Assembly: GCA_001920415.1 (NCBI GenBank)
Contig: MNJR01000004.1
Coordinates: 1,479-65,478 of the forward strand
Direction: 5' to 3'
Length of the DNA stretch: 64,000 nt
From: Acidobacteria bacterium 13_1_20CM_3_53_8
GTDB lineage: Bacteria > Acidobacteriota > Blastocatellia > Pyrinomonadales > Pyrinomonadaceae
In this document: positions 14,849 to 60,675 of the stretch, piece after piece
How positions within the stretch are numbered: the stretch's first letter is position 1
Layout of the letters: each line of letters begins with the position of its first letter
Position numbers and translations under genes: made by a program
The notes under the pieces: generated by a model
Database searches by the model: none
Seen by the model: the letters and a program-made list of their open reading frames with translations, nothing else
What the model was told of the DNA's origin: nothing

Positions 14849-15109
14849 CTTTTACAGAGGAGGACGACCGCTGGGCTGGAAGGCTCGCGCTGCCTGCGAG
14901 TGGTCGCTTAAAGACGCGCGCACTCGAATCGTCTGAGCGCGGCTTCAACTAACCGGGTCGGGATGGCATCAAACAGGCATGAGCGCCGCATCGCTCTCAA
15001 TTTAATTGAAAGCGATTGCAGGTAAGGATGTCAAGAGGATAAAAGCTTTGTTAACTTCCCATAGGATTCGGGAAAAGAATTATGAGGTTCAGCAGCAAGT
15101 GGATATATT

Positions 15110-15586: not shown

Positions 15587-15613
15587 GTGTGAACTCCTGA
15601 TTGAAAGCTCAGC

Positions 15614-16177: not shown

Positions 16178-16187
16178 GTCGCTACTC

Positions 16188-18281
16188 CTATGGGCAAGGG
16201 TGAAATTGTCTCTGGTTTCTGTATTCATAACTTGTAATGAACGCATTGATGACTCCTGTATAATCACCTGTGCGGTTTAATACATCAGTCCAAAAGGCAA
16301 GTCCGCCTGGCTCTGGATCCCTTTGCAGGAAATTTCGATAGCAGTGTGAAACAAAAGCTCGGTTGTAAACCGACGGATCGAAATTGGGTGATCCTGGCGG
16401 GTTTGCCATTGCCGGGTCTGTCTGCTGAAACTCAGCTGATCTAAAGAATTCATTGGCGACCACATTGCGTTGCGAACCGATGCAATTCCTATCAAATTCG
16501 CATCTAGCGATCTGGGAAGTCCAGAAGTCCAATCCTCCTTGATCCGGCTCACGTGAGAGAAAATCCCAATACTGCTGCTTAACGAAACATCGCGCACCAT
16601 CAATCATGTTGTTACTGAGCGCAGAATCTCCTGGGCACGCGCCATAGTTCGAATTAACAGTACCATGTAAAGTAGGTAAACTATTAATCCCGGCTAAGAA
16701 GATTGAAGGTGTATTGGAAAATTGTAGCCGATACTTTACGAAAGATACAGATGGATCAAAAATCACTTGGCCGTTCCATCTCCATCCGATGTAACTGAAT
16801 TGATAATTATTTTCCGTAGCAAGTTTCAGCGGCTGCTCATACATGGGAAGTAATGGGTCACCCACATAATAATAGACATAAGTCTGGAAGCGGTCATCAA
16901 CAAAAAGCAGATCATTCATAGAAAAGTAGATGGAAGATGGGTCATATGAATCAAGGGTATCAGCAGGAGGATCGAAAGCATTATACGTTAGAACATTCCC
17001 TTGAGAGAAGTTTGGGGCTGGATGCGCAAAAATAGTTACGGCATCAGAATCGAGTTGCCATCCTGTATCCACTTGATCCTGTGATTGCCGCACTGTAATA
17101 CACTCAAAGTTGCCGTTTCTAACATCATTTACACGTTTACGGAATGCGCTCACAAACTGTTTGATTTTTATGCCGCTCTGTGCAGGATCAGATAGATACT
17201 GGACAGAAGGTATTTGTACACGGGCTGTAAATATTATTCCGTCGTCAGCTCCGCCTTGATAACAGCCTAATGAATATATAGCTCCTGGTAAACCAGTGGT
17301 GCAATGTCTGTCTCTACTTACTTGGTCTGATGTAGATTGTGCCGTAAAACTTGAAAGGGTAGGTAGAATCACATTTACATTTACGGATGCAGGAATACTC
17401 ATTCCACTTTCGGAATAGGTAACCGATGCCTTGTAGCTGCCGGGCTTCTTCCAGCGAATAATTGGTGACGGGATATTCGTTCCACCTACTAGATCGTAAT
17501 CAGTCCCCTGCTGTCCCGTAAAACTCCACGCGTAAGTACCGCTTCCCGCCGGAGAGAGACTAGCTTGTAACCTGACATCTGCACCGATAAGCGCATTTTG
17601 CGTAGTACCACTAAGATTACCGCTCACTCTCGGATTTGTAATGCTGAGAGTTGGATTCGGGGTGAACGTAATATCATCAAAGCCTATTCCATATACGTCT
17701 GTGACGTTGTAGATACGTATTCTTGTGATCTTAGTGCCAAAAGAGCTTAGGTCGTCAAAAAGTGGATAATAGCTTGAGCCATAGTAGTTATTGATAGGAA
17801 CGGTTCGCGCATAAGTTCCATTTTCCCAAATGTCAATCTGGGCAATAGTACCGTAGTTATCAGGGCCTACAATATAAAAAGAAAGATTCTTCACAGGCCA
17901 CTTAAAGTCGAGAATGAGTTCATGATGAGAGTCGTATCCAGTGCCAGAGGTAACGAAATTTGGCGACGACGAGGTAACACAATAGCCGCAATAATTCCAT
18001 GTATGTGAAGGATGGTAAAAATTATCCTCAGAAGAGAAAGTAACTTGTGGATATTGTGAGCCGACGACAGTGTTATTTGGAAGATTGTCAAAATTTATGA
18101 TAACCGGATCTATCGCATCAGGACCATTATCGTCTTGCGCTATCGTTAGTTCAGTAAATGTAAAGACCAGGGCTATACATAACAGCACATAAAGGGAAAT
18201 CTTAAGTCTAATAATAGATCGCAAAGCAAATGAAATTGAGGAAGGCGAAGAGAATATACTACGGAGGGGGAAGCGCATCAC
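16188..18281 (-). CDS. Secreted multidomain protein with Ig/PKD-like middle region and two C-terminal DUF4214 repeats
   Basis: N-terminal hydrophobic anchor. The DUF4214-type motifs are QQYWDFLSREPDQGGLDFWTSQI and CYRNFLQRDPEPGGLAFWTDVLN. It is a paralogue of the tail of the protein encoded at 22845-24398. Confidence 0.8.
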   Translation of the reverse strand: MMRFPLRSIFSSPSSISFALRSIIRLKISLYVLLCIALVFTFTELTIAQDDNGPDAIDPVIINFDNLPNNTVVGSQYPQVTFSSEDNFYHPSHTWNYCGYCVTSSSPNFVTSGTGYDSHHELILDFKWPVKNLSFYIVGPDNYGTIAQIDIWENGTYARTVPINNYYGSSYYPLFDDLSSFGTKITRIRIYNVTDVYGIGFDDITFTPNPTLSITNPRVSGNLSGTTQNALIGADVRLQASLSPAGSGTYAWSFTGQQGTDYDLVGGTNIPSPIIRWKKPGSYKASVTYSESGMSIPASVNVNVILPTLSSFTAQSTSDQVSRDRHCTTGLPGAIYSLGCYQGGADDGIIFTARVQIPSVQYLSDPAQSGIKIKQFVSAFRKRVNDVRNGNFECITVRQSQDQVDTGWQLDSDAVTIFAHPAPNFSQGNVLTYNAFDPPADTLDSYDPSSIYFSMNDLLFVDDRFQTYVYYYVGDPLLPMYEQPLKLATENNYQFSYIGWRWNGQVIFDPSVSFVKYRLQFSNTPSIFLAGINSLPTLHGTVNSNYGACPGDSALSNNMIDGARCFVKQQYWDFLSREPDQGGLDFWTSQIARCEFDRNCIGSQRNVVANEFFRSAEFQQTDPAMANPPGSPNFDPSVYNRAFVSHCYRNFLQRDPEPGGLAFWTDVLNRTGDYTGVINAFITSYEYRNQRQFHPCP

Positions 18282-36776: not shown

Positions 36777-37442
36777 ATGGATGACCTCAGATACCTTCTA
36801 GTCGAAAACGAAAGCGCGATAGAGGCGCATCGCTCTCGCCCGGAAATTCGCGCAGACGATTTCGATAACAGAGAGTGGAAGCACGCACGACCTACGCGAA
36901 TCAATCGCTATTGGTCTGGCGAGGAAGCGCCGGAATCTCGCCACGCAGAAGCTCGCCTGATCTGGTCTGACGCGGCGCTTTCTGTGCGCTTTGAGTGCAA
37001 CCAGCGAGAGCCGCTTGTTGTTAGCGCCACGCCACAGGCCGTTAAGAAGACAATAGGATTGTGGGACAGAGACGTTTGCGAAATCTTCGTCGCGCCCTAT
37101 GCGAGCGAGCCTGAAAAGTATTTAGAGTTTGAGGCCGCGCCAACAGGCGAGTGGATTGACCTTGCAATTCACTGGCGAGCGGAAGGGCGCGAGACCGACT
37201 GGAACTTTCATTCAGGCATGGAGGCATCCGCTCGCGTCTCTCACAACCACGTAACCATCGCCATGCGCATTCCCTGGGAAGCGTTCGGCCACAAACCGCA
37301 GGCCGGAGAGCGATGGCGCGCAAACCTCTTCCGCTGCGTTGGCCGTGACCCCACGCGCGGCTACCTAGCATGGCGACCAACGCACACGCCGCAGCCAAGC
37401 TTCCACGTCCCGCAGGCTTTCGGGTGGATGGATTTTAAGTGA
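36777..37442 (+). CDS. Carbohydrate-binding family 9 (CBM9/DOMON)-like protein
   Basis: Motifs LIWSDAALSVRFEC, LWDRDVCEIFVAP, YLEFEAAPTGEWIDL, RIPWEAF and GERWRANLFR. The start is 2 nt after the SDR stop. Confidence 0.6.
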   Translation: MDDLRYLLVENESAIEAHRSRPEIRADDFDNREWKHARPTRINRYWSGEEAPESRHAEARLIWSDAALSVRFECNQREPLVVSATPQAVKKTIGLWDRDVCEIFVAPYASEPEKYLEFEAAPTGEWIDLAIHWRAEGRETDWNFHSGMEASARVSHNHVTIAMRIPWEAFGHKPQAGERWRANLFRCVGRDPTRGYLAWRPTHTPQPSFHVPQAFGWMDFK

Positions 37443-37522
37443 TGAGTGATAAGAAAGTCTGGAGTAAGAAGAGAAGAAGCTGACAGCTAATAGCTATCAG
37501 TTATTAGCTTTTGACTCCAGAC
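37439..37522. repeat. Composite element: solo family-C half-arm (GTGATGAGTGATAAG) plus a family-F core inside a GTCTGGAGT/ACTCCAGAC hairpin
   Basis: agctgacagctaatagctatcagttattagcttttgactcc (37478-37518) is about 85% identical to 57129-57168. The CBM9 stop TGA (37440-37442) lies in the C-type arm. Confidence 0.7.
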
Positions 37523-37589
37523 TTTTTTACCACTATCTAGCATCTGACATCTGCTTTTTGTGTCTCTCTCAAAAATTCGTTAGGCCATC

Positions 37590-41491: not shown

Positions 41492-41651
41492 GGAGGGAGA
41501 ATGGAAGGGATGAGGGATGAGGGATGAGGGATGAAAAAGATGGTGATGAGTGCGGAGTGCAGAGTGATGAATAAGAAGCTCTTAATTCATCATTCTGCAC
41601 TCTGCGTTCTGCACTTTCTTCATCCTTCATCCCTCCTTTCATCCCTTCTTC
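41492..41651. repeat. Family-G nested hairpin: outer arms of (GGGATGA)n, inner arms GTGCGGAGTGCAGAGTGATGAAT
   Basis: Outer left arm: ggagggagaatggaagggatgagggatgagggatgagggatgaa. Outer right arm: ttcatccttcatccctcctttcatcccttcttc. An inner inverted repeat spans 41548-41614. The PilZ stop codon lies in the right arm. Confidence 0.75.
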
Positions 41652-42070
41652 ATAAGCTCTCTCAAATAAGTATTGAATTTCTCGCGTTCTTGTTCGCTTA
41701 TCTCAGTGATCTGCACGCCGACCAAATAACCTTTATCCGTCTCGCTTCTTTCCAGCTTTTCGTAGCGCACGGGCGCGACCCTCATCTCGACGGGGCCGTG
41801 CGGCGTCTCCATGACGACGAGCAGGGCGTGGCCTTCGCCCATCAGGTAGGAATCGTTTATGCGTATGGCAGGAACTATCAGAGCAAGGCCGCTCTCGCTA
41901 ACATCGTGCGTGAAGCCGTCGAGTTTGGGCAGGCGAACACGCCCCGGCGCTCTCACTTTCGGCTCGATAATCAGGACGCTGACGGGCAGGCGAACGCGAT
42001 GGCGCGGCGAGCGTCGGCGGTTGCCTACGAAGTTGCGCAGTAGCGCAATGATAGATCGGGTCAGTTCCAT
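41639..42070 (-). CDS. PilZ domain protein (c-di-GMP receptor)
   Basis: The RRRSPRHRVRLPV (RxxxR) and DVSESGLAL (D/NxSxxG) motifs are present with the expected spacing. Confidence 0.85.
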   Translation of the reverse strand: MELTRSIIALLRNFVGNRRRSPRHRVRLPVSVLIIEPKVRAPGRVRLPKLDGFTHDVSESGLALIVPAIRINDSYLMGEGHALLVVMETPHGPVEMRVAPVRYEKLERSETDKGYLVGVQITEISEQEREKFNTYLRELMKKG

Positions 42071-42077
42071 AAAAACA

Positions 42078-42214
42078 GTGATAAGTGATGAGTGATAAGT
42101 GATAAGAGGAAGAATACAGAAGTCAGGAGTCAGAATATGAAGCTATTATCTTCTGAATTCTGTATTCTCACTTCTGCGTTCCCTTCTTATCACTTATCAC
42201 TCATCACTTATCAC
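42078..42214. repeat. Family-C hairpin: perfect 29-bp arms of GTGATAA/GTGATGA heptads with a second inverted repeat in the loop
   Basis: gtgataagtgatgagtgataagtgataag (42078-42106) pairs with cttatcacttatcactcatcacttatcac (42186-42214). The inner repeat is agaatacagaa...ttctgtattct. Confidence 0.9.
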
Positions 42215-43044
42215 CTATTAAGCTGTCTGCCGTTAACGTCTGAGCTGTGTATGCCGTCGTTGTTTATCATGAATGAAAGGCGGCCTGTCTGGCCGTAGCG
42301 TTGCGGCTCTGCGTGACCCATAAAACTCTTGTGGTCGGAAGAGACTGTGAATTGAAAGTTGTAGCCGATTGATTCTGTCGCAATTGATTCCTGCGTCAGG
42401 TGGCCTGCGGCTATCAACTCTTGGAGGTTGCCGAACAGGCCGCTGTGCTGGATGCTGTACTTCAATTCGGCTTCGAGCACGCCCTGAAGCGCTGCCTGCA
42501 TGTCGCTGTGATGCGCGTTGATTCGCGCATCGAAGAAGAAGCGATTGCCGCCCTGTTTGACCACTCGTTCGTTCTCGTGATCGCCGACAATCCATTGTCC
42601 GTTTGAACGAATCAACGTGAGCGGCTCAGGCTGTTGTATTGCATCTCCGGGGTTCGCAGAAGCTTTAACGAAAACAGTCGCAGTGTCTACGCTCACCTGT
42701 TCGCCGCTGATTGTAATGTTATCGGGAACGCTCGACGCCATGCGCTCGAACTCCGGGCGAAGGTCATCGAACTCCTGATCCGTTAAGCCCTCAATCGCAG
42801 GCTTGTAAATAGAGATTGCGAACGCCTCGCGGAAGTGGCGCTCGCGCAGCAAGCGATAGAACTCGCGCACGGTCTCTGTAGGCGTGCGAGCCTGAGCCGC
42901 TGAAGAGCTTTGCGCGTTCGCAGCTTGCGGCGCTGGCTGCGAGTTTTGAGAAAGGGCTGCGACCGACGCTAAGATTAAGAGGAGCGCTGTTATGAACAGT
43001 CTTATGCAGTACGAGCGAAGAAACGTTCTGGATTTGAAGTGCAT
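42211..43044 (-). CDS. Secreted protein of unknown function
   Basis: 277-aa ORF with signal-like segment FITALLLILASVAALSQ. The stop codon is inside the family-C arm. Confidence 0.65.
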   Translation of the reverse strand: MHFKSRTFLRSYCIRLFITALLLILASVAALSQNSQPAPQAANAQSSSAAQARTPTETVREFYRLLRERHFREAFAISIYKPAIEGLTDQEFDDLRPEFERMASSVPDNITISGEQVSVDTATVFVKASANPGDAIQQPEPLTLIRSNGQWIVGDHENERVVKQGGNRFFFDARINAHHSDMQAALQGVLEAELKYSIQHSGLFGNLQELIAAGHLTQESIATESIGYNFQFTVSSDHKSFMGHAEPQRYGQTGRLSFMINNDGIHSSDVNGRQLNR

Positions 43045-43163: not shown

Positions 43164-43274
43164 GAAGGCAAAAGTAAAAAGGCAAAAGTTAGGCGGAAGC
43201 CATTTTTAATTTATAATTCACGCCTGCAAGGCGTGCCTTCCCTTTTGACTTTTTACTTCTACCTTTTACCTTTT
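43164..43274. repeat. Family-D hairpin (AAAAGGCAAAAGTAAAAAG-type arms)
   Basis: Left arm: gaaggcaaaagtaaaaaggcaaaagt. Right arm: cttttgactttttacttctaccttttacctttt. The loop core ggcggaagccatttttaat is shared with the copy at 60556. Confidence 0.75.
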
Positions 43275-45604
43275 AGCGAGAGAATGTCCGCGTAGGCGTG
43301 CGGGTTCGCGCCCGGATTCGCCTTCAGGAAATCTTCCGTTGGCGGGAAGAAAGGATTGTGCACGCTGGCCCAGTTGGCTACGCGGTCTGTGAAAGCCTTG
43401 AGCCAGGAGACGCCCGTCATGAAAGCTATGACAATTCCGGCTAAAGCGCCGCCAGCTATATAACCCGAAGCCATCAACACGCCCGGACTCTTATCGCCTT
43501 CTGCGACCAGTTCTTCTTCCGACAGTTTCTTGTGCGCGAGCCGCTTGCGCAATCGGTTATCAACGAGCCAGCGAATGAAACCGCCGATCAGGATAGGACT
43601 CGAAGACGAGAGCGGCAAATAGACTCCGACGGCGAAGGCGAGCGACGGGAGGCCGCTCATCTCCAACACGATTGCTATCATCACGCCGAGCAGGACGAGT
43701 CCCCACGGCAATCTTCTATCAAGAATGCCTTTGATGATATAGCTCATCAGCGTAGCCTTCGGCGCTTTGAATTTATCAACTTGCGAGCCATCGGGACGCG
43801 TCTTAACTTTGCCGTTGATGCCTGGGTCAACAATGTAAACGGGCACGCCCTGTTCGTTGACAAGATACTTCGTTGCCGTACCGCTCTCCTGATCAACTCT
43901 CTGCCAGACGCGATAAGTGTTTGTGTCGTTGACGCTCTGTGGCCCCGTCAGTCTCTCCGTCCCGCCGAGTTGTGAAGGATCAACGCGCGTGCCGACAGGC
44001 AAAGTATCTCCGACCGGGGCATAAACCGTTCCCGCGTCGTTCAAGCGTAGAAGGATTGGCCCAAGCACTAGCGCGGAAGCTAGTGCGCCTACGAGAATGG
44101 CTATCTGCTGGCTGCTGGGCGTAGAGCCAACGAGGAAGCCTGTCTTCAAATCCTGCGAAGTCGTGCCGCCGTTCGACGCTGCGATGCAGACGATTGCGCC
44201 GATTGATAACGCGGTGACGTAATACTGTGGGCCTGTCCAGCCGACCAGTACGAATATCAAGCAGGTCAATAGAAGCGTTGCGACCGTCATGCCCGAAATC
44301 GGATTTGAAGATGAGCCTATCTCGCCGGTCAGACGCGAAGAGACCGTTACGAACAGGAAGCCGAAAGCTACTATCATCACAGCACCAGCGAATGCCACGA
44401 AGATGTTGTGCTGAAATCCCAACTGCGGGAAGGCCATTATCATTCCGATGAGCGCGATTATTCCGGCCAGCACGAACTTCATCGAAAGGTCGCGGTCTAT
44501 GCGCGGCGCTTGCTCGTTCGCAGCCGCGCTGCTGCTTCTTAGGTCGCGCAAGCCGCCTTTCAATCCGTGCCAGATGACTGGCAGCGAACGCACAAGGCTG
44601 ATGATGCCGCCCGCAGCCACAGCGCCCGCGCCTATGTAGAGCACGTAAGCGTTGCGCACATCGTCCGGCCCCATCTTGCTAATCAGCGTATCGCCCGGCG
44701 GCAGAACGGTTGTTAATGAGTCCCCGAAAAATTTTATGGCCGGAATCAGAACAAGGTAAGCCAACACGCCGCCCGCGCACATTATAGAAGAGATGCGTGG
44801 GCCAATGATGTAGCCCACGCCCAATAGCGTCGGGTTGACCTCAACCGACACGGAGCCTCCTGTGTATGGTGCCCCCCAGATTTTTTCGGGCGTCTCTTTC
44901 CAGCCGCTGAAGACTCTTAGAATAGTGTAATAGATGAAACCTATGCCGAAGCCTGCGAAGATAGTCTTCGCGCCAATGTTCGCGGTGTCCTCAAGTTTCG
45001 CCGCGTCCGCCTTTGCGTCCGTCGCAGCCGCAGCTCTAGATTCATCCGACGCGCCTGCCTTCAACACTTCCGCGCATGCAGTCCCTTCCGGGTATTTCAG
45101 AAGGCCGTGCTGCTGGACTATGAGCGCGCGGCGAAGGGGAATCATCATGAGGATTCCTAGAAGCCCGCCCAGGATTGCTACGAGCATGACGCGCGTGAAC
45201 TCGAGGTCGAAGCCAAGAATCATAATCGCAGGCATCGTCACGCCTATGCCGAACGCGATTGATTCGCCAGCCGAGCCAGCCGTCTGCACTATGTTGTTCT
45301 CTAAAATCGTGGCGTCTCTTAAACCGAATTTAGAGAGCATGCGAAAGAGTGTGATTGAAATGACCGCCACGGGAATCGAAGCGCTCACCGTCAGGCCGAC
45401 TTTCAAGACCAGATAGAGTGACGATGCGCCGAAGATAATCCCAAGAATCGTGCCCATGACAAGTGGCAGCGCGGTCAACTCGCGCAAGTGCGTCGCCGTA
45501 GGTATGTACGGGCGGAACGCTGCAAGATATGGGTTCTCAGGCTTGGCCCCGACTATATCAGGGTATTCGTTTGTGGCAGCAATGTTCGGGTCTATAGTCG
45601 CCAT
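43259..45604 (-). CDS. OPT-family oligopeptide transporter
   Basis: About 16 TM segments. The N-terminus ..YIPTATHLRELTALPLVMGTILGIIFGASSLYLVLKVGLTVSASIPVAV is typical of bacterial OPT proteins. I prefer the ATG at 45604, which has a GGAGG upstream; a GTG at 45625 is the alternative. Confidence 0.8.
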   Translation of the reverse strand: MATIDPNIAATNEYPDIVGAKPENPYLAAFRPYIPTATHLRELTALPLVMGTILGIIFGASSLYLVLKVGLTVSASIPVAVISITLFRMLSKFGLRDATILENNIVQTAGSAGESIAFGIGVTMPAIMILGFDLEFTRVMLVAILGGLLGILMMIPLRRALIVQQHGLLKYPEGTACAEVLKAGASDESRAAAATDAKADAAKLEDTANIGAKTIFAGFGIGFIYYTILRVFSGWKETPEKIWGAPYTGGSVSVEVNPTLLGVGYIIGPRISSIMCAGGVLAYLVLIPAIKFFGDSLTTVLPPGDTLISKMGPDDVRNAYVLYIGAGAVAAGGIISLVRSLPVIWHGLKGGLRDLRSSSAAANEQAPRIDRDLSMKFVLAGIIALIGMIMAFPQLGFQHNIFVAFAGAVMIVAFGFLFVTVSSRLTGEIGSSSNPISGMTVATLLLTCLIFVLVGWTGPQYYVTALSIGAIVCIAASNGGTTSQDLKTGFLVGSTPSSQQIAILVGALASALVLGPILLRLNDAGTVYAPVGDTLPVGTRVDPSQLGGTERLTGPQSVNDTNTYRVWQRVDQESGTATKYLVNEQGVPVYIVDPGINGKVKTRPDGSQVDKFKAPKATLMSYIIKGILDRRLPWGLVLLGVMIAIVLEMSGLPSLAFAVGVYLPLSSSSPILIGGFIRWLVDNRLRKRLAHKKLSEEELVAEGDKSPGVLMASGYIAGGALAGIVIAFMTGVSWLKAFTDRVANWASVHNPFFPPTEDFLKANPGANPHAYADILSLKGKR

Positions 45605-45848
45605 TGGAACTAAAACCTCCGGCACAAGTAGTTTTTACGAAAACCTTGGGAGAGCTACGCGGGGAATGTTACGCGCGTTAATTTACCGCGCGGGCGCGTG
45701 CGAGGGCAAGTGTTCAGGCTAGAAGTTTTGAATATAAGATGCAAAATTAAGGTTGCCTTTCTTTTACTCCGACCCCATTTCTAATACACTTATCCGCACT
45801 TACGACGAAAATTTGAACGCCCATTAGTTTCAGGAGCTAAAGATCATC

Positions 45849-49060: not shown

Positions 49061-49132
49061 TCCACGAAGTCACACGAAACAACACGAAAACTGATTGAGT
49101 TCTCTTCGTGTTGTTTCGTGTGACTTCGTGGA
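49061..49132. repeat. Family-B hairpin, perfect 28-bp arms with a 16-nt loop
   Basis: tccacgaagtcacacgaaacaacacgaa (49061-49088) pairs with ttcgtgttgtttcgtgtgacttcgtgga (49105-49132). Confidence 0.9.
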
Positions 49133-51936: not shown

Positions 51937-54044
51937 CGAATCTGCTCGGACAGACGCTGGACGAAAAATATCTGATTGAGAGAGAGCTAGGCCGTGGCGG
52001 GATGGGCGCGGTCTATCTGGCGACGCACGTGGGCACGGGGCGCGTCGTAGCTGTGAAAGTCATCGCGCCTGAGTTCATGCGTCACAGCGAGTTCGTAGAG
52101 CGTTTCAAGCGCGAGGCGCGCGCAGCCGGTCGCCTTCGCCACCCGAACGTTGTTGATGTGACGGACTTCGGCTTTGCTCGCGTAGGAGCGGAGCGCGTGG
52201 CCTATTTAGTGATGGAATATCTGGACGGCTGCACGCTGGCAGAGATTCTGGCCGAAGAGTCAAGCTTGCCGCTCAACTGGGTCGTTGACATACTTGAACA
52301 GACTTGCTCGGCTGTGGAGAGCGCGCACCGGCAGGGCATCATTCACCGCGATTTGAAGCCCGACAACATCTGGCTTGAGCCGAACCAGCGCGGCGGCTAC
52401 ACGGTCAAGGTTCTGGACTTCGGAATCGCCAAACTCGCGGAGCAAGCAGATCAGGGACTGGAAGAGCAGGCGGCTCACACTCCAAACAAGTCCGATTCAT
52501 CAACCAACTCTCAAACGCATCACTCCTCGTCGCTCGAACTCCCAACGCTTGCGCTTGCATCTTCGTCAACGCCGACTGACGCAGCCGAAAGCACAGGCGC
52601 GACTTCGCACGTGCGACAGACAGCAAGCTCTTCATTGCTCGATACAGAATTGAACGAGTCTGCCACGCTGTTGCAGCCTGCATCAACAAAGAATACAGAG
52701 ACTGCGGAAGCGGCGACGCGGCTTCTTTCGCACGCAGTTGATGACGAAGAAGCAGGTACGCGCATACTTGAGCCGCGCACAACAACGGAGCGCAACTTGT
52801 CGCACACTGCTTCTGCCAGCAGCCTCACGCGCGTTGGCGCGACGCTTGGCACGCCGCTCTACATGTCGCCCGAACAGTGGCGCGGCGAACAATTGGACGC
52901 ACGCTCGGACATCTACTCATTGGGCGTCATAGCCTATCAGATGCTCTCTGGCCGCACGCCCTTCAAGGGCGACCTCACGACCGTCAGCCGCGAGACGCAA
53001 GCCGCCCCGCCTCCGCTGCTCAAGATGAAGAATGTGCCGAAGAAGTTCGCGCGCGTTGTGCTGTCTGCGCTGGCCAAGAAGCCGGAAGATCGTCCATCTA
53101 CAGCCCTGGCGCTCGCAAGCGCCCTGCGCGCACACTCGGAAAGCGCAATCATGTTGCTGCGCCACGCACTAACTCTCTTTAGCGAACACATGCCCGTCTT
53201 CCTGCGCCTGGCGCTTCTCGTCAGCATCCCTATGATCGTAGTCAACTTGATGCAACTGGCTCTCGGCCTGTTCGTCGCGCGGCAGGCAGCAGTAAGCAGA
53301 ACGGTAGCCACAGGCGGCGGCCTTGTCTTGAGCGTAAGCAAGACCACAACCACGATTGCCAGTTTTGTGCTGAGCCTGATTACACTGCTCGTAGCAATCC
53401 TGACTGCGGCCATACTGACGGGCGTCACAACGCGGCTGGTCACGCAACTGCTGGCTCAGCCTCTTCGCCCCATTCAACTGCGCCCGGCTTTCAGTGCGCT
53501 CAAACGACGACTGCGCCCCTTTCTGACTACAGCCTTTCTGGTCAGCTTGCTCTCTATGATAGGAATGATTCTGGGCTTAATCCCCGGCCTTATAGTTCTG
53601 GTCAACTACTCAATGGTCACGCCCGTGATGATGATGGAGGAGGGCATGAGCGGGCGCGCAGCCATGAGACGCGCGCGAACTCTTTCAAAGCGATCAAGGC
53701 CGACCGTTATCTTCATAATCTTATTTCAAATCGCCGTGCCTATCCTGACAGCGCTCCTGCTCGCGTTTCTAATCATATCCGTCATCAAAGCCTTCGCCAT
53801 GTCGGGCAGCCACGCCAACACTTTCAGCCTTATCTACCAAGTGATACAGATGCCCATGAACATACTGTTCGGCTCCTTCAGCGCCATCGTCACCGCTCTG
53901 CTTTACTTGAAAACTAGATTGGCCGGAGGCGAGACTTTGAGGGATGCTTTAGGACAGTTCGATTCCGAAGAGTTGCCGCAACGCCGCTGGCAAAAGCGCA
54001 TGCGCGAACGCCTTCAAGTAACCATCAGACAAACACGACACTGA
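51927..54044 (+). CDS. Ser/Thr protein kinase with a low-complexity linker and a multi-pass C-terminal membrane domain
   Basis: Kinase motifs GRGGMGAVYLA, VAVK, HRDLKPDNI, DFGIAK and SPEQ, followed by 5-6 hydrophobic helices. Confidence 0.9.
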   Translation: MALTNLLGQTLDEKYLIERELGRGGMGAVYLATHVGTGRVVAVKVIAPEFMRHSEFVERFKREARAAGRLRHPNVVDVTDFGFARVGAERVAYLVMEYLDGCTLAEILAEESSLPLNWVVDILEQTCSAVESAHRQGIIHRDLKPDNIWLEPNQRGGYTVKVLDFGIAKLAEQADQGLEEQAAHTPNKSDSSTNSQTHHSSSLELPTLALASSSTPTDAAESTGATSHVRQTASSSLLDTELNESATLLQPASTKNTETAEAATRLLSHAVDDEEAGTRILEPRTTTERNLSHTASASSLTRVGATLGTPLYMSPEQWRGEQLDARSDIYSLGVIAYQMLSGRTPFKGDLTTVSRETQAAPPPLLKMKNVPKKFARVVLSALAKKPEDRPSTALALASALRAHSESAIMLLRHALTLFSEHMPVFLRLALLVSIPMIVVNLMQLALGLFVARQAAVSRTVATGGGLVLSVSKTTTTIASFVLSLITLLVAILTAAILTGVTTRLVTQLLAQPLRPIQLRPAFSALKRRLRPFLTTAFLVSLLSMIGMILGLIPGLIVLVNYSMVTPVMMMEEGMSGRAAMRRARTLSKRSRPTVIFIILFQIAVPILTALLLAFLIISVIKAFAMSGSHANTFSLIYQVIQMPMNILFGSFSAIVTALLYLKTRLAGGETLRDALGQFDSEELPQRRWQKRMRERLQVTIRQTRH

Positions 54045-54200
54045 AAAGCAGTGACAAGTGACTAGCAAGAGAGAATTTTTAATCTTTAATCTAAATCTTT
54101 TTCAGTTTACAGAAATAAGCTAATTGCGTTCACTTAATTTATGTAAATGAAAAATTAAAAGTGATTCCTGCTCGTCACTTGTCACTTGTCACTGCTTTTC
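54043..54200. repeat. Hairpin with GAAAAGCAGTGACAAGTGAC arms (GTGACAA heptads) and an AT-rich ~118-nt loop between convergent genes
   Basis: gaaaagcagtgacaagtgac (54043-54062) pairs with gtcacttgtcactgcttttc (54181-54200), a perfect 20 bp. Confidence 0.85.
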
Positions 54201-56127: not shown

Positions 56128-57081
56128 TCAAACCATCGCCAGCGTGCGACGCACGCCGCCGCGCTCGAAATAGTCGCTCGCGCGCCGAACGTCGCGCTCA
56201 ATCTGTTTCCTCAAATCTTCCAGCCCGGCGAACTTGCGCTCGTCGCGCAAGCGATGAAGGAAGCGCACGCGAACCACGTCGCCGTACAAATCCCCTGACC
56301 AATTCATTACGAACGTTTCGACGGAAGGTTCCGCCGCATCATTAAACGTAGGGCGCGTGCCGACGTTTGTGAGACTTCGCCGCCACGCGCCCTCAACCAA
56401 TGTAGCCGTAACGTAAACTCCTGCACGTGGTATGACGCGGTTCTGCGCTCTGAGGTTGGCCGTTGGAAAGCCCAGACTGTGACCGCGCGCGTCGCCGTGA
56501 ATGACGCGCCCTTCCACGCCGTAAGGGCGGCCAAGCATACGGCGCGCAAGGTTGACTCGCCCTTCTGAGAGCAACTGTCGAATACGGCTTGAGCTGATGC
56601 GCTGGCCGCGCAGTCGAACCTCCGGCACTTCGTCAGCGAAAAATCTTAGCCGCTTACTCACCTTTCTCAGGAGCTTTATGTTCCCCTCGCGGTCATGACC
56701 GAACGCGAAGCCGCGTCCCAGATAAACCTCTTTCGCGTGAAGTCGCTCTTCAACCACGTCGCGCAAGAAATCTTCCGCGCGAATCTGCGAGAAGGCGCGC
56801 GTGAAACGTATGACTATAGCCTGCTCAACGCCCAGCACGCCTAGCGCCTCTATCTTCTGATCCAGAGTTTGCAGAAGCGGAGGCGCAGATTCTGGATGAA
56901 GCACAGCGCGCGGGTGAGGATCGAAAGTTATCACGGTCGGGACCGACTTCATTGCGCGCGCACGTTCCACAACAGTTCTCACAATCAACTGATGCCCCAG
57001 GTGCAGCCCGTCGAACACGCCCAGCGTCAGCACCGTTGGCCGCGCAATCTCCGCATTGTCAGTTCCGTGAAAAAGCTTCAT
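56128..57081 (-). CDS. ribF: Bifunctional riboflavin kinase / FMN adenylyltransferase
   Basis: Motifs LTLGVFDGLHLGHQ, GFPTANL, and the C-terminal riboflavin kinase segment ...EVHLLDF-like (VETFVMNWSGDLYG). Confidence 0.95.
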   Translation of the reverse strand: MKLFHGTDNAEIARPTVLTLGVFDGLHLGHQLIVRTVVERARAMKSVPTVITFDPHPRAVLHPESAPPLLQTLDQKIEALGVLGVEQAIVIRFTRAFSQIRAEDFLRDVVEERLHAKEVYLGRGFAFGHDREGNIKLLRKVSKRLRFFADEVPEVRLRGQRISSSRIRQLLSEGRVNLARRMLGRPYGVEGRVIHGDARGHSLGFPTANLRAQNRVIPRAGVYVTATLVEGAWRRSLTNVGTRPTFNDAAEPSVETFVMNWSGDLYGDVVRVRFLHRLRDERKFAGLEDLRKQIERDVRRASDYFERGGVRRTLAMV

Positions 57082-57083
57082 AA

Positions 57084-57204
57084 GTGATAAGTGATGAGTG
57101 ATAAGTGATAAGTGATAAGAGAGAAGATAGCTGACAGCTATTAGCTAATGGCTATTAGCTTTGACTCCAATCTTTCTTATCACTTATCACTCATCACTTA
57201 TCAC
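57084..57204. repeat. Family-C hairpin with a family-F core in the loop
   Basis: The left arm is five GTGATAA/GTGATGA heptads (57084-57118) and the right arm is cttatcacttatcactcatcacttatcac (57176-57204). The loop holds agctgacagctattagctaatggctattagctttgactcc. Confidence 0.9.
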
Positions 57205-57954
57205 TAAATTATCGTATGCCCACTCAACGCCGCGTGGGAGTTTAGGGGAGTCACGCTCGTGCCGAACATCGTGCGCGATGTGCGTAAAGAAAGTTCTACG
57301 AGGTTTTAATTCACTCACATATTCAAGCGCGCGTTCTACCCACAGGTGCGTGGGGTGTTCGCGGAAGCGCAGGCAGTCGAGCACAAGTACATCAAGACCA
57401 CTGAGCGCAGCAATCGTGGCGGGCGGAATCTCGTTCAAATCAGTTGCGTAGGCGAAGTCGTTGAAGCGATATGCGATGACTGGCAGGCGACCGTGAATCA
57501 CCTCAAGGGGCGTGACCTGCAAATCAGGGCCGATGCAGAATGGCGCGCCCGCGACGACCGTGTGCGCAAGGATTTGCGGCAGGCCGCCGCCGAAGTATGT
57601 AGGCTCGAAGACGTACTTGAAGATGCGGCGAATGTCTACCCAGGCGCGCTCGTTGGCATAAACGCCCAAAGCGCCGTGCCGAAAGTTTAAGGGGCGAATG
57701 TCATCGAGTCCGAAGATGTGGTCGGCGTGACAGTGCGTGATGAGAACGGCGTCTAGCCACTTTATTTTTTGACGAAGAGCTTGCTGTCGAAAATCCGCCG
57801 AAGTGTCAACGAGAACCGTCTGCCCTCCATGCTCTATCAGAACCGAAACGCGCAGCCGCTTGTCGCGCGCATCATCCGACACGCACGTCTCACACTCGCA
57901 CCCGATGGACGGCACGCCTGTAGAAGTTCCAGTTCCGAGAAAGGTCAGCTTCAT
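57187..57954 (-). CDS. MBL-fold metallo-hydrolase (PhnP/GPMB-like)
   Basis: Motif THCHADH (HxHxDH). The last five codons (VISDE) and the stop lie inside the family-C arm. Confidence 0.85.
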   Translation of the reverse strand: MKLTFLGTGTSTGVPSIGCECETCVSDDARDKRLRVSVLIEHGGQTVLVDTSADFRQQALRQKIKWLDAVLITHCHADHIFGLDDIRPLNFRHGALGVYANERAWVDIRRIFKYVFEPTYFGGGLPQILAHTVVAGAPFCIGPDLQVTPLEVIHGRLPVIAYRFNDFAYATDLNEIPPATIAALSGLDVLVLDCLRFREHPTHLWVERALEYVSELKPRRTFFTHIAHDVRHERDSPKLPRGVEWAYDNLVISDE

Positions 57955-58035
57955 CAGTTTTCAGTTTTCAGTTTTCAGTTTTCAGATGAAGCGAAAAGCT
58001 TTTACTTAAAACTGAAAACTGAAAACTGAAAACTG
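57955..58035. repeat. Family-E hairpin: (CAGTTTT)4 / (AAAACTG)n arms
   Basis: cagttttcagttttcagttttcagttttcag (57955-57985) pairs with ctgaaaactgaaaactgaaaactg (58012-58035). It fills the whole gap between two minus-strand genes. Confidence 0.9.
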
Positions 58036-58621: not shown

Positions 58622-58757
58622 CTTAACTCTTCCCTGAAAGACGCAGAAGCCTCAACCGCGTAGGCCGCTTCCGAAGCCATGCGCCATAATCTATGAAATT
58701 TCATTTGATGTCTTGATGGTAACATCCCTATCTGCGCGCTCGCAAGAAAGCTAAAAA

Positions 58758-58888
58758 CAGTTTTCAGTTTTTAGTTTTCAGTTTTCAGAGTAAGAACCCG
58801 GCTTGGAGGATGCGAACCAAAGCTTTAGACTCTAACCCTGGACTGTTGAGATACGAACTTAAAACTGAAAACTAAAAACTGAAAACTG
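58758..58888. repeat. Family-E hairpin, second copy, with a 76-nt loop in a divergent intergenic region
   Basis: cagttttcagtttttagttttcagttttcag (58758-58788) pairs with ctgaaaactaaaaactgaaaactg (58865-58888). It ends 5 nt before the mazG ATG. Confidence 0.9.
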
Positions 58889-58893
58889 CTCTT

Positions 58894-59730
58894 ATGTCCG
58901 ATTCATTTGATGATCTGGTTGCGTTGATGGCTCACTTGCGCTCCGCTGCGGGGTGCCCGTGGGATAGGGAACAGACCTTTGAGACTCTTGCGCCTATGCT
59001 GGTTGAAGAGGCTTATGAAGTTTTCGAGGCTGCGCAGGTGGCAAGCGAAGGTCGTACAGAAAACCTTCGGGACGAACTCGGCGACCTTCTTTTCCAGATA
59101 CTCTTTTATGCTCAAATTGCGTCGGAGCGTAATGAGTTCACGATTGACGACGTTGCGCGCGCAGTCCACGCGAAGATGGTGCGCCGTCATCCGCATGTGT
59201 TCGGTGATGCACAGGCGGAGACTTCCCCAGAAGTTCTGCGTAACTGGGAAGAGATAAAAGCTGTAGAGAAGCGCGCTGCGGGCGACGCCGAGCGACAGGA
59301 CAAATCTTTGCTTAATGAGATTTCATTGAAGACTCCGGCGCTTGTTGAAGCCCGAAAACTTTCGTCCAGAGCAGCGCGAGTCGGCTTCGACTGGAAGCAG
59401 TTGGAAGACATCTTCGATAAGCTGCACGAAGAGATAGAGGAACTACGCGGTGCCATACGCGAGCGCGATGAATCCAGTTCAGGCGAGGCATCCGAGACGC
59501 GCGTGAATGAAGAGATAGGAGATGTGCTCTTCGCAGTTGCGAACATCGCGCGCCATTTGAAGGTCGAGCCTGAATCAGCCCTGAAACTCACAAACCGCAA
59601 GTTCCGCCGCCGCTTTCGTCACATCGAGCGAAAATTAATGGAACAAGGTCGAACACTCGAAGACGCCACGCTCGACGAGATGGAGGCGCTGTGGCAGGAA
59701 GCGAAAAAGCAGGTGACAAGTGATGAGTGA
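58894..59730 (+). CDS. mazG: Nucleoside triphosphate pyrophosphohydrolase MazG
   Basis: Motifs CPWDREQTFETLAPMLVEEAYEV and ELGDLLFQ, plus a second EEIGDVLFAV repeat. Confidence 0.95.
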   Translation: MSDSFDDLVALMAHLRSAAGCPWDREQTFETLAPMLVEEAYEVFEAAQVASEGRTENLRDELGDLLFQILFYAQIASERNEFTIDDVARAVHAKMVRRHPHVFGDAQAETSPEVLRNWEEIKAVEKRAAGDAERQDKSLLNEISLKTPALVEARKLSSRAARVGFDWKQLEDIFDKLHEEIEELRGAIRERDESSSGEASETRVNEEIGDVLFAVANIARHLKVEPESALKLTNRKFRRRFRHIERKLMEQGRTLEDATLDEMEALWQEAKKQVTSDE

Positions 59731-59844
59731 TAAGTGACAAGAAAAAGACGAACTGCTATCTTATTTGCTGCGACCTGTTGGCGGTCTGATGTGGTCGCAA
59801 CTCCTCTTGTTGTTTCTTATCACTCATCACTTATCACTCATCAC
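59713..59844. repeat. Family-C-type hairpin (GTGACAA/GTGATGA/GTGATAA heptads), imperfect
   Basis: gtgacaagtgatgagtgataagtgacaag (59713-59741) pairs with cttatcactcatcacttatcactcatcac (59816-59844). The MazG codons VTSDE and its stop lie in the left arm. Confidence 0.8.
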
Positions 59845-59855: not shown

Positions 59856-60557
59856 ATGGCAATGATTCAGTTCGTTCAGAATTACGATGATCTTTCGACG
59901 GATAGAGGCTTTCAGTTCAAGTTCCACTGCGACAAATGCGGCAACGGTTTCATGTCGCACTTCCAGCCTTCTACGCTTGGCACGGCAGGGTCGCTGCTGC
60001 GCGCCGCAGGAGATTTATTCGGCGGCTGGGCTAGCTCCGCAGGAAACTCTGCATACGAGATGCAGCGCGCCGTAGGCGGCAAGGCGCACGACGAGGCTCT
60101 GATGAAAGCCGTCGCAGAGGGCAAGGAACATTTTCATCAATGCTCGCGCTGCGGTCGCTGGGTCTGCCCGGAAGTATGCTGGAACGCTAACGCAGGTCAA
60201 TGCGAAGATTGTGCGCCCGATTTTCAAGAGGAGATGGCTTCGTCGCACGCTCATGCCAAAGCCGAAGCTGCGCGCCAGCAACTCTACGAGCGAGCGCAGC
60301 AAACAGATTACGCCTCGAACATTGATATGGGCGTAGACGCTCACGTTCGCGCGCCATCGCCAGCAGCGCAGCAAAAGGCAGCCGCCGCTGCCAACTGCTC
60401 GTCGTGCGGCGCTGAAGTCGGCAAGGCGAAGTTCTGTCCCGAATGCGGCGCGCCCACCAAGCCACAGAAGCTCACCTGCCCCGGCTGCGGCCATCAGCCC
60501 GAAGGCTCGCCTAAATTTTGTCCTGAATGCGGAATGAAACTGCCGCTCATAAGTTAA
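59856..60557 (+). CDS. Zinc-ribbon domain protein
   Basis: CxxC pairs: CDKCGN..., CSRCGRWVCPEVC, CSSCGAEVGKAKFCPECGAP and CPGCGHQPEGSPKFCPECG. Confidence 0.7.
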   Translation: MAMIQFVQNYDDLSTDRGFQFKFHCDKCGNGFMSHFQPSTLGTAGSLLRAAGDLFGGWASSAGNSAYEMQRAVGGKAHDEALMKAVAEGKEHFHQCSRCGRWVCPEVCWNANAGQCEDCAPDFQEEMASSHAHAKAEAARQQLYERAQQTDYASNIDMGVDAHVRAPSPAAQQKAAAAANCSSCGAEVGKAKFCPECGAPTKPQKLTCPGCGHQPEGSPKFCPECGMKLPLIS

Positions 60558-60675
60558 GGCAAAAGGTAAAAGTAAAAAGGCAAAAGTGCGGCGGAAGCCA
60601 ATTTTTTAATAAAAGATGGTTTCAGCCTTCCTTTTGCCTTTTACCTTTTTCCTTTTTACTTCTCCCTTTGCCTTC
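60556..60675. repeat. Family-D hairpin between convergent genes
   Basis: Left arm: aaggcaaaaggtaaaagtaaaaaggcaaaagt. Right arm: cttttgccttttacctttttcctttttacttctccctttgccttc. The loop core is gcggaagccaattttttaat. Confidence 0.8.

Follow-up and report, generated by a model that had tools for sequence, protein, structure and literature searches.

Intergenic hairpins with tandem 7-nt arms in an acidobacterium resemble the STRR repeats of cyanobacteria

The window analysed here, a stretch of 64,000 nucleotides of contig MNJR01000004.1 from the soil MAG Acidobacteria bacterium 13_1_20CM_3_53_8, carries at 42078..42214 a palindrome, without assigned strand, between two genes read from the minus strand, i.e., a gene for 277 aa (42211..43044) and the gene of a PilZ-domain protein (41639..42070). 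The outer arms of this hairpin (42078-42107 and 42185-42214) are 30 nt long, 100% complementary and separated by 77 nt, and each of them consists of four GTGATAA/GTGATGA heptads; the inner arms are imperfect and made of AGTCAGG-type heptads, with additional period-7 arrays at 42117 and 42151. Its predicted folding energy is -78.1 kcal/mol as RNA (z -11.3 versus shuffles) and -44.9 kcal/mol as DNA (z -12.1). The TGA stop codon of the 277-aa gene (42211..42213, minus strand) lies within the first heptad that is encountered on this strand, and the gene ends in ...AAT AGG TGA, followed by TAAGTGATGAG. At the opposite side, the PilZ start codon (42068..42070, minus strand) is located 7 nt beyond the stem, after the sequence TGTTTTT, and no Shine-Dalgarno motif is present between the stem and this codon. 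The minus strand of the element shows here a terminator-like U tract, UGUUUUU.

A sequence-only reading of this DNA described six hairpins with GTGAYRA or GGGATGA heptads in their arms, and all six are present in the window, the one at 37439 being weak. The element at the junction of an MBL-fold gene and ribF (57083..57205; the 57084 element) has outer arms identical to those of the 42078 element, i.e., 30 nt of GTGATAA/GTGATGA units that are 100% complementary (57083-57112 and 57176-57205), and an interior of AGCTAWT heptads (-63.5 kcal/mol, z -10.6). The ribF start codon (57079..57081, minus strand), whose position is common to all orthologues, directly adjoins its last heptad (CACTT ATG). 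Between mazG and a double-zinc-ribbon (DZR) gene, GTGACAA, GTGATGA and GTGATAA units form a hairpin at 59713..59844, with arms of 36 nt (59713-59748 and 59802-59837) that are 83% complementary (-54 kcal/mol, z -5.0). The convergent kinase and ABC1/UbiB-like genes are separated by a GTGACAA hairpin (54043..54200), in which the arms formed by these units (54050-54086 and 54150-54186) are 76% complementary and the stem is lengthened by the pair AAAAGCAG / CTGCTTTT (-48.1 kcal/mol, z -6.4); the ABC1 stop codon (54189-54191, minus strand) is the TGA of a heptad. This hairpin is among the minority that is flanked by an A-tract and a T-tract. At 41506..41653, four GGGATGA units (41506-41534) pair with TCATCCC-type partners that reach 41653, enclosing GTGATGA/GTGCRGA inner heptads (-74.8 kcal/mol, z -10.2), and the right arm contains the stop (41639-41641, minus strand) and the last codons of the PilZ gene. 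The weak member (37439..37534) has just two clear heptads in its left arm, GTGATGA and GTGATAA, followed by AGTCTGG- and AGCTAWT-type inner heptads, and a degenerate right arm (-45.2 kcal/mol, z -8.6); the stop of a CBM9 gene (37440-37442) is the TGA of its first heptad, and AGCTGACAGCTA and TTTGACTCCA are common to this element and the 57084 element.

In addition to these six, the window contains five hairpins from two other heptad families. A CAGTTTT...AAAACTG hairpin (57955..58035; -44.9 kcal/mol, z -10.9) occupies the whole DUF1844-to-MBL junction; the MBL start codon overlaps its final heptad (CTGATG), and a GGAGG is located 8 nt upstream of the stem. The second CAGTTTT hairpin (58752..58894, z -7.1) lies in the divergent spacer between DUF1844 and MazG, with its 3' edge 6 nt ahead of the mazG start codon. 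The AAGGCAA/AAGTAAA family is represented at 33025..33106 (z -5.9), nested in a REP-like inverted repeat (32992-33020 / 33116-33144), at 43165..43275 (z -4.0), where an OPT gene (43259..45625, minus strand) enters the heptads by approx. 17 nt and terminates at a variant TAG, and, with AAGGCAA units, between convergent genes at 60556..60674 (z -6.4), where the TAA stop of the DZR gene (60555-60557) is found at the first, variant heptad. The core GGCGGAAGCCA is common to the elements at 43165 and 60556, and GAAGCCAAT is present in inverted form in the 33025 element. These asymmetric cores shared by copies of an element are themselves heptads of other families.

The heptad periodicity is far from a chance result. 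Allowing at most one mismatch, GTGAYRAGTGAYRAG has 23 matches in the window versus 0.03 expected, and a single criterion detected 11 tracts at period 7, whereas periods 5, 6 and 8-12 gave none. All 11 elements are predicted to form long hairpins (z -4 to -11 versus shuffles) and every one of these hairpins, distributed in three families over 64 kb, is located in a spacer or at a gene end and none inside a gene. They are not an assembly artefact: a region of 6.5-7 kb was found in two other assemblies, with 100% identity over 6,520 nt in an independent one and 99.986%, i.e., one mismatch in 6,954 nt, in the other; both contigs have an identical RibF protein and represent the same genome, so no copy-number variation is visible. 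Equivalent hairpins are present in 80 related metagenome contigs, and the pattern occurs mostly in MAGs of Pyrinomonadaceae, Blastocatellia and other Acidobacteriota. A search of Rfam 15 gave no match at the gathering score, just sub-threshold hits to eukaryotic miRNA-precursor models, which are generic for long hairpins.

Another characteristic feature of these elements is that their arms encode the ends of genes. As the sequence-only reading pointed out, the 5' arm of the GTGAYRA type stops translation in every frame: read from the sequence, GTGATAAGTGATGAGTGA halts frame 2 at nucleotides 2-4, frame 3 at 9-11 and frame 1 at 16-18. These arms do serve as the stops of real genes, given that a heptad stop codon is used at eight of the 11 gene 3' ends that face hairpins in the window (CBM9, PilZ, the 277-aa gene, OPT, ABC1, MBL, MazG and DZR have their stop in the first heptads), and all six GTGAYRA/GGGATGA elements face at least one gene 3' end. 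The MBL and MazG reading frames extend 15 nt into the arm, and as a result the last five codons and the stop of the MBL-fold gene (57187..57204, minus strand) are wholly heptad-encoded (GTG ATA AGT GAT GAG TGA, V-I-S-D-E*), as is the C-terminal tail and stop of MazG (59713..59730, plus strand; GTG ACA AGT GAT GAG TGA, V-T-S-D-E*). The tail of MBL changes along with the local heptad in relatives; the end ...AGT GAT GAG TGA is retained in relatives whose junction now carries another family, and at locus L202 remnants of both arms are retained.

It had also been claimed that the stop-bearing arm is always the 5' arm, with the CAGTTTT family as an exception. Within the GTGAYRA family this polarity is essentially invariant: all plus-strand matches to GTGAYRAGTGAYRAG lie in left arms and all minus-strand matches in right arms, and across phyla and viral contigs GTGAYRA was found on the 5' arm approx. 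100 times (79 + 27 strand-wise) and on the 3' arm once or twice. The opposite polarity of the CAGTTTT family, with TGA on the 3' arm, was likewise confirmed. Each family has a fixed arm order; nevertheless, six of six on the 5' arm do not amount to six independent trials, since copies of one family share polarity by descent, given that the inversion of a palindrome leaves its arms unswapped. A universal rule that the 5' arm bears the stop was rejected at two levels. In a set of 77 heptad hairpins that were not selected by pattern, all three frames are closed by neither arm in 44, by the 5' arm only in 20 and by the 3' arm only in 11, and among 33 unit groups TGA is located in the 5' arm in nine and in the 3' arm in seven. 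These same 33 groups have AGT in the 5' arm in 12 cases and ACT in none, and AGG in eight and CCT in none. This bias is significant, yet a universal rule of AGT in the 5' arm was discarded as well, on account of the families CATTTKY, GGTAAAT and CTTTGTA that lack it. A purely neutral picture would predict neither the fixed arm order across phyla and in viral contigs nor the AGT/AGG bias of the 5' arms.

The gene order DUF1844, MBL and ribF is kept at 80 orthologous loci, and the two junctions in this segment document how these elements change. At both, the space between stop and start is nearly always taken up by a hairpin, belonging to more than ten unrelated heptad families or to non-heptad palindromes; the few empty junctions measure 1, 21 or 40 nt, or consist of an overlapping ATGA. 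Relative to the stop, the outermost helix starts at a median position of -2 or +1 nt; it leaves a median of 7 or 3 nt ahead of the start and covers 91-94% of the spacer. Some hairpin is present at these junctions in approx. 95% of the relatives despite complete sequence turnover, a figure for two junctions that were picked on account of their hairpins in the window. Spacer homology is gone once the third-codon-position identity of MBL falls below approx. 0.9; hairpin families are replaced faster than synonymous sites saturate, and unrelated hairpins are found at loci inside one 10% distance cluster. In the relatives the elements are nested in one another, their arms are mosaics of several heptad types, and unpaired heptad arrays occur immediately upstream of the mazG start. 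Occupancy by hairpins is similar whether a spacer is convergent, tandem or divergent, with no depletion of the divergent ones, in a census based on home-made gene calls and on spacers that are orthologous and hence non-independent. Gene ends assigned by a long-ORF heuristic in pattern-selected loci were discarded as too noisy because of antisense ORFs. A Shine-Dalgarno sequence split and bridged by the hairpin was also considered and rejected: the DUF1844-to-MBL junction of the window fits, with its GGAGG, but most relatives have GGCGG, and the motif is protein-coding (G-G-K/R).

The sequence-only reading knew of no described class of repeats with this design; nevertheless, two precedents were found. 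The 7-bp STRR repeats of cyanobacteria form hairpins between co-transcribed genes, such as those located between hupS and hupL and upstream of hoxW in Nostoc/Anabaena, for which roles in transcript stability, translational coupling or termination have been proposed (PMC2670836). The elements of the window share with them the tandem 7-nt unit, the several unit families per genome, the many dispersed intergenic copies (here 11 hairpins of three families), and the inverted, hairpin-forming arrays between co-transcribed genes, which here span 91-94% of the spacer. They differ in the host, an acidobacterium and not a heterocystous cyanobacterium, in their units (GTGAYRA, GGGATGA, CAGTTTT and AAGGCAA instead of STRR1-3), in the pairing of nearly all arrays into long hairpins of several layers, and in that the hairpins take up the whole junction between stop and start and contribute the ends of genes. 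Therefore, they are elements of the same kind as the STRRs, without belonging to one family by descent. Two of the three classic STRR units, as reportedly described by Mazel et al. in 1990, contain AGT (CCCCAGT and CAACAGT), and to our knowledge no function has been established for these heptamers since then. A search of the literature retrieved no description of heptad hairpins in Acidobacteria.

The second precedent is the TAACTGA heptamer described by MacGregor in 2015, which stops every frame and can overlap the end of an ORF by up to 18 nt; it occurs in marine Beggiatoaceae, Cyanobacteria and Bacteroidetes, and binding of S1, Csp or CsrA has been proposed (PMC4679880). In both systems the heptamers precede start codons by a few nt, carry stops in all frames in one orientation and lie in spacers without canonical ribosome-binding sites, and the AAAACTG(A) arm of the window, which adjoins the MBL start and lies 6 nt before that of MazG, is one base off TAACTGA. 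The difference is that in the Beggiatoaceae the repeats are nearly always direct (169 direct sets versus one inverted) and without predicted folding (PMC4679880), whereas here they form one arm of a hairpin. Palindromic repeats of Fusarium, made of microsatellites, and of Lobosphaera mitochondria, which are optional between close species and thought to be mobile (PMC7218506), resemble our elements in their short tandem units, but they are organellar and eukaryotic, have other unit lengths and are unrelated to gene stops.

The proposal that had been derived from the window alone was that of a designed module, in which an all-frame stop on the arm that is met first is combined with a stem-loop acting as a bidirectional transcription terminator. 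It accounts for the heptad stops at eight of 11 adjacent gene ends, for the fact that each of the six family elements of the window faces at least one gene 3' end, and for the counts of GTGAYRA on the 5' arm (79 + 27 versus 1). Many copies are also flanked by AAAA(G)CAG...CTG(C)TTTT, and upstream A-tracts (31/111) and downstream T-tracts (15/111) exceed the approx. 6% of the controls; in addition, canonical short terminators are not enriched in the region (20 versus 24.3 expected), so that something else must end the transcripts. However, the all-frame closure that is absent from both arms in 44 of the 77 hairpins, and confined to the 3' arm in 11, together with the nine-to-seven distribution of TGA among the unit groups, does not correspond to such a design, and a fixed polarity is what copies of one founder would show under the null expectation. 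By home-made gene calls, divergent spacers carry hairpins no less often than the other spacers. Between genes in tandem, the stem is followed by the next start at a median of 3-7 nt, which leaves no room for a promoter, and efficient termination would thus silence the downstream gene. Intrinsic terminators, including bidirectional ones, have in common with these elements the stem-loop and, in a minority of copies here, the flanking A- and T-tracts; in contrast, the present stems are of 30-55 bp, moderately AT-rich, built from repeats and mostly devoid of the U-run (at least five T in the eight positions after the stem are found in only 15 of 111), and many adjoin the start of the next cistron or sit in divergent spacers. 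A canonical intrinsic terminator, i.e., a GC-rich stem with a U-run, was discarded, since a consensus scan flagged none of the hairpins. The sense strand shows no G-U enrichment, and among 112 non-redundant spacers RNA stability has no strand bias (-50.0 versus -49.8 kcal/mol; 61 versus 51 spacers, p = 0.54); on these equal sense and antisense energies and G-U counts, RNA-level selection on the transcribed strand was rejected. On this balance we regard a selected stop-and-terminator module as improbable.

A different possibility is that the elements are classical non-autonomous transposable elements, MITE- or REPIN-like, mobilized by a dedicated transposase in trans and with the heptad arms as terminal inverted repeats. 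The identical 30-nt arms of the dispersed 42078 and 57084 elements, the asymmetric cores common to copies, the nesting of elements, the replacement of entire spacers between close relatives and the co-occurrence of REP-like palindromes (GTCAGTACCGCC...) would all be in line with it. REPs are described as imperfect palindromes of 20-40 bp with a fixed sequence and a GTAG or CGTC tag, linked to RAYT transposases (PMC3733652). The REP, BIME and REPIN elements of proteobacteria are, like the present ones, abundant extragenic palindromes of short spacers, often within operons, variable between strains and with proposed roles in mRNA stabilisation and termination; here, on the other hand, the arms are microsatellites with a variable number of units, and no GTAG or CGTC tag is visible at the element ends as read by eye. 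Gene-end MITEs such as Correia/NEMIS in Neisseria, RUP/BOX in pneumococcus and RPE in Rickettsia can add terminal codons or stops; these are also small hairpin-forming repeats, with a defined consensus, terminal inverted repeats, target-site duplications and no heptad periodicity, a point in which the present elements differ. The flanks of the elements at 42078, 57084 and 59713 show no target-site duplication, though inverted arms are present, and there is no transposase or RAYT among the genes of the window. Given also that arm length and unit order differ from copy to copy and that the shared cores turned out to be heptads of other families, this origin seems unlikely. A reading to which we give just as little weight as to the terminator module is that the heptads are sites read in a 7-nt register by a single-strand binder of the cold-shock-domain or S1 type, which, bound to the arm that is transcribed first, would compete with the hairpin and make read-through or translational coupling switchable. 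Each domain of a cold-shock protein binds 6-7 nt, and such proteins can be antiterminators; the strict period of 7, the AGT and AGG bias of the 5' arms (12 versus 0 and 8 versus 0 in 33 unit groups) and the constant chirality across phyla would fit such a factor. The unpaired arrays upstream of mazG in relatives and the AAAACTG(A) arm at two starts of the window also resemble TAACTGA (PMC4679880). Against it, unit sequences differ widely between families and turn over quickly, the abundant families CATTTKY, GGTAAAT and CTTTGTA have no AGT, very stable stems with the arms paired throughout are predicted, and no candidate protein was identified.

These hairpins are dispersed repeat DNA of multiple families, present in non-coding spacers of every orientation and confined between a stop and the next start, and they are rapidly rebuilt, with mosaic arms, nesting and the replacement of whole spacer contents between close relatives. 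We thus favour, with moderate confidence, that they are fast-evolving intergenic palindromic repeats which look like the acidobacterial (Pyrinomonadaceae/Blastocatellia-like) counterpart of the STRRs, nearly harmless to their host, and that the all-frame stop is a tolerance filter and not their purpose. Units would be gained and lost by slippage, and elements would be copied between loci, as the non-repeat cores shared by copies suggest, although no transposase, target-site duplication or other means of copying turned up; they would persist for being nearly harmless. Once folded, the RNA may loop itself out, so that the upstream stop and the downstream start would stay a few nt apart at the base of the stem, and the 3'-arm segment that lies over the next start would be opened by a ribosome that finishes translation at the foot of the 5' arm, by which translational coupling could be kept. 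Families with GTGAYRA, GGGATGA or AAGTAAA units have a 5' arm that closes every frame within 18 nt; therefore, an element on a gene end would exchange just the last one to five codons and the stop. As a filter of this kind, the all-frame stop would still have real consequences, namely repeat-encoded stops and C-terminal tails. Side effects on the stability of mRNA 3' ends or partial termination, especially between convergent genes, are plausible, and the hairpin itself could be under selection at the two junctions with approx. 95% occupancy, which were chosen for having hairpins.

The presence of the STRR design at very high density in soil Acidobacteria indicates that it is not a cyanobacterial curiosity, and the approx. 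80 orthologous junctions represent a natural experiment on the birth, replacement and tolerance of such repeats. Repeats of this type can replace the final codons and the stop of housekeeping genes, i.e., those of the MBL-fold, mazG, ABC1/UbiB-like and PilZ-domain proteins and the OPT transporter, and in the annotation of MAGs errors arise easily in calling the ORF ends and starts beside these hairpins. Two concrete, testable leads to a mechanism are the fixed chirality and the AGT/AGG bias. There is a small chance that this chirality, constant in phyla and viral contigs (AGT 12 versus ACT 0), reflects a conserved factor that reads the single-stranded 7-nt units of the first arm in register as it emerges and decides whether the hairpin forms; if so, these elements, and with them the STRRs of cyanobacteria, would be widespread switchable devices for read-through or translational coupling instead of passive repeats.

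The focal hairpin, at 42078–42214, has two perfectly complementary arms of 30 nt made of GTGATAA/GTGATGA units, with 77 nt between them. The six sites with heptad arms that had been recognized in the sequence-only reading (37439, 41492, 42078, 54043, 57084 and 59713) are all present, with the qualifications that in the 37439 element just two heptads are clear and the right arm is degenerate, and that the GGGATGA array starts at 41506. The window also contains two CAGTTTT...AAAACTG hairpins (57955 and 58758) and three of the AAGGCAA/AAGTAAA...TTGCCTT type (33025, 43165 and 60556). Allowing at most one mismatch, GTGAYRAGTGAYRAG occurs 23 times in the window versus 0.03 expected from shuffles, always in left arms on the + strand and in right arms on the - strand. 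With one scoring rule throughout, 11 period-7 tracts were detected, and none with periods 5, 6 or 8–12. Folding into a long hairpin is predicted for 11/11 elements (z-scores -4.0 to -11.3), and for the focal hairpin the predicted energies of the RNA and DNA forms are -78.1 and -44.9 kcal/mol, respectively. An assembly artefact was ruled out because two independent assemblies contain the stretch with the hairpins, one with 100% identity and the other with 99.986% (a single mismatch over 6,954 nt). The existence of the heptad hairpins is confirmed, and the arithmetic of the all-frame stop is also correct, with three frames closed by a heptad arm within 18 nt.

The neighbouring genes are ordinary, i.e., PilZ, OPT transporter, CBM9, ABC1/UbiB-like, RibF, MBL-fold hydrolase, DUF1844, MazG and double zinc ribbon; RibF is the protein of the MAG 'Acidobacteria bacterium 13_1_20CM_3_53_8'. 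Eleven gene 3' ends in the window face a heptad hairpin, and at eight of them the stop codon comes from the first heptads. The coding sequences of two genes continue for 15 nt within the arm: that of MBL closes with GTG ATA AGT GAT GAG TGA (V-I-S-D-E-stop), and that of MazG with GTG ACA AGT GAT GAG TGA (V-T-S-D-E-stop). At the other side, the ribF start codon adjoins the last heptad, the MBL ATG shares bases with the last heptad of its upstream hairpin, and the PilZ ATG directly follows UGUUUUU; no Shine-Dalgarno motif was found between stem and start at these three junctions. Spurious ORFs can run into hairpins whose arms leave every frame open, which is a pitfall for annotation. A 170-aa ORF on the + strand (41531–42043) starts inside the GGGATGA hairpin and overlaps the Pfam-supported PilZ gene (41639–42070, - strand).

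With the MBL-fold protein as query, metagenomes yielded 80 orthologous loci (79–86% amino-acid identity), in which the gene order DUF1844 > MBL > ribF is kept. The MBL > ribF junction is empty in a few relatives (1, 21 or 40 nt), and in two loci DUF1844 and MBL have no spacer and overlap by ATGA. Almost all the other orthologous junctions hold a hairpin that runs from stop to start, but its families are many: the heptads GTGAYRA, GGGATGA/GGATGAA, AAGGCAA, CATTTKY...RMAAATG, TCATTGA, CAGTTTT, AGTCCAA, AGTCTGG, TGTCAGT, GGTAAAT, CTTTGTA, CAGTGAG and AGCTTTT, as well as 8-nt and 10-nt periodic hairpins, several non-periodic REP-like palindromes and nested combinations. At the two junctions, the outermost predicted helix has its beginning at -2 or +1 nt relative to the stop codon and its end 7 or 3 nt short of the start codon (medians), and covers 91–94% of the spacer. 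Homology between spacers is lost where the third-codon-position identity of MBL falls below approx. 0.9; the families are partly clade-specific, and loci of one 10% distance cluster may carry unrelated hairpins. In one clade (L178, L180 and L183), the MBL > ribF spacer measures 302–469 nt, having gained a few hundred bases with apparent short ORFs beside remnants of a CATTTKY hairpin, and ribF starts with TTG.

In most relatives, the 3' end of MBL reads ...GTG GTG AGT GAT GAG TGA, an in-frame GTGATGA heptad, and this tail varies together with the local array. With a GTGACAA array (locus L195) it is I-S-D-K-stop, with GTGACGA (L123) it contains GAC GAG, and with GGGATGA (L124, L130 and L152) it is ...D-E-G-stop or ...K-G-stop. 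Since S-D-E-stop persists in relatives now holding another hairpin family, and remnants of both old arms are retained in L202, these data suggest that newer elements took over the interior of an older hairpin at the end of MBL.

Scans for three GTGAYRA units gave at least 120 loci with one genome per species, and at least 120 in viral contigs (IMG/VR, L203–L322). Among the matches listed, Pyrinomonadaceae, Blastocatellia and other Acidobacteriota MAGs dominate, with others in Chloroflexota, Planctomycetota, Bacteroidota, Clostridia and proteobacteria. Each heptad family has a fixed arm order; among these matches that of GTGAYRA is the same across phyla and viral contigs, and where a partner arm is present, the strand-wise counts of GTGAYRA as 5' arm are 79 + 27; the exceptions are one doubtful case and one reversed case recognized by eye (L026). 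For the viral contigs listed, the partner arm lies downstream in 27 strand-wise cases and the order is reversed in none. In the hairpins of the window and of L003–L202 (33 unit groups), 5' arms carry AGT in 12 versus ACT in 0, AGG in 8 versus CCT in 0, GGT in 8 versus ACC in 1, and GAG in 8 versus CTC in 1, while TGA (9) and TCA (7) are balanced; from these counts, purine-rich, Shine-Dalgarno-like motifs rather than stop codons track the polarity. A fixed order is expected from a single founder, but this requires wide horizontal spread; a factor reading the heptads in register is another possible source.

The proposal that stop-bearing 5' arms and stem-loop form a combined translational stop and terminator was only partly supported. 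The heptad stops at 8/11 gene ends agree with it; however, among 77 hairpins not selected by pattern, all frames are closed in neither arm of 44, in the 5' arm only of 20, in the 3' arm only of 11 and in both of 2, and TGA lies in the 5' arm of 9 and the 3' arm of 7 of the 33 unit groups. The terminator consensus scan did not flag the heptad hairpins, and canonical terminators were not enriched (20 found versus 24.3 expected). An A-tract precedes 31/111 hairpins and a T-tract follows 15/111 (controls approx. 6%), so that a minority, such as 54043–54200, resemble bidirectional terminators. By home-made gene calls, and with many of the spacers orthologous, inverted repeats occur in 32/74 convergent, 37/112 tandem and 20/51 divergent spacers, and heptad hairpins number 4, 11 and 9, respectively. 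No RNA-level selection on the transcribed strand was seen (sense -50.0 versus antisense -49.8 kcal/mol, p = 0.54; 61 versus 51 spacers; G-U pairs 418 versus 369).

The arms are layered, onion-like. The asymmetric interior strings AGCTGACAGCTA and TTTGACTCCA are common to the 37439 and 57084 elements, GGCGGAAGCCA to 43165 and 60556, and GAAGCCAAT is present inverted in 33025. Because family members share asymmetric interior strings, their sequences point to composite elements copied as such, although the shared cores in turn consist of heptads belonging to other families. No transposase was found in the window, and no target-site duplication was detected at the 42078, 57084 and 59713 elements.

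Other repeats are present nearby. The REP-like palindrome GTCAGTACCGCCTGCGGTAGCGGGCGGGT lies at 5384–5462 and at 32992–33020/33116–33144, one copy surrounding an AAGGCAA hairpin; relatives (L151, L157, L159, L169 and L146) carry variants of it (GTCAGTACCGGGAGCGGTAGCGACCGGGT) in their spacers, and it is therefore a second dispersed palindrome family. Hairpins with approx. 10-nt periodic CACGAA-type arms (TCCACGAAGTCACACGAAACAACACGAA; 11262–11343, 49061–49132 and 5505–5557) are nested in CATTTKY loops in relatives (L188, L132, L150, L157, L176 and L144). Arms of 8-nt period (CCGCGTCT/GGAGACGC) occur at 29615–29728, in L149 and in L200, there within a GGATGAA hairpin. The Acido-Lenti-1 RNA motif (8317–8364, - strand; Rfam, 46 bits, gathering score 37) is contained in one of the two arms of an inverted repeat (8312–8368/8472–8528; 57 nt, 89% complementary), so that the 'sRNA' motif forms an inverted pair and resembles a repeat element. 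A low-GC island (approx. 14000–18000; 0.44–0.49 versus approx. 0.55 elsewhere), which contains two ORFs without Pfam match besides a DUF4214 protein of 697 aa, may have been acquired horizontally.

The sequence-only reading knew of no described class with this design. Nevertheless, 7-bp STRR repeats are described from filamentous cyanobacteria, in which they give hairpins at sites that include the hupS–hupL spacer, with the same candidate roles as those considered here (PMC2670836), and TAACTGA repeats directly upstream of start codons stop every frame and can overlap ORF ends by up to 18 nt (MacGregor 2015, PMC4679880). The literature search found no report of such hairpins in Acidobacteria, and no Rfam family matches them. 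Several relatives (L199, L193, L158, L169, L159 and L194; divergent MazG/DUF1844 spacer) carry three to four unpaired direct heptads, GAAACTT/TGAAACT, directly upstream of the mazG start, resembling the TAACTGA repeats of Beggiatoaceae; the window has an AAAACTG hairpin arm at this position.

We have documented the distribution, turnover and geometry of the hairpins, and their repeat-encoded stops and tails. Most likely they are STRR-like heptamer-repeat hairpins, i.e., dispersed repeat DNA that is quickly remodelled, settles in any spacer and is retained because its harm is small. The all-frame stop would act as a tolerance filter, by which certain families can be accommodated at gene ends. 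Folded RNA would keep stop and start codons side by side, and translation of the two genes could be coupled if a ribosome that terminates at the base of the 5' arm unwinds the 3' arm where it covers the following start; effects on mRNA ends may occur, but would not be the purpose of these elements. The heptad hairpins of the window join an already known sort of repeat, and their density, turnover, repeat-encoded gene ends and chirality are the useful new facts.
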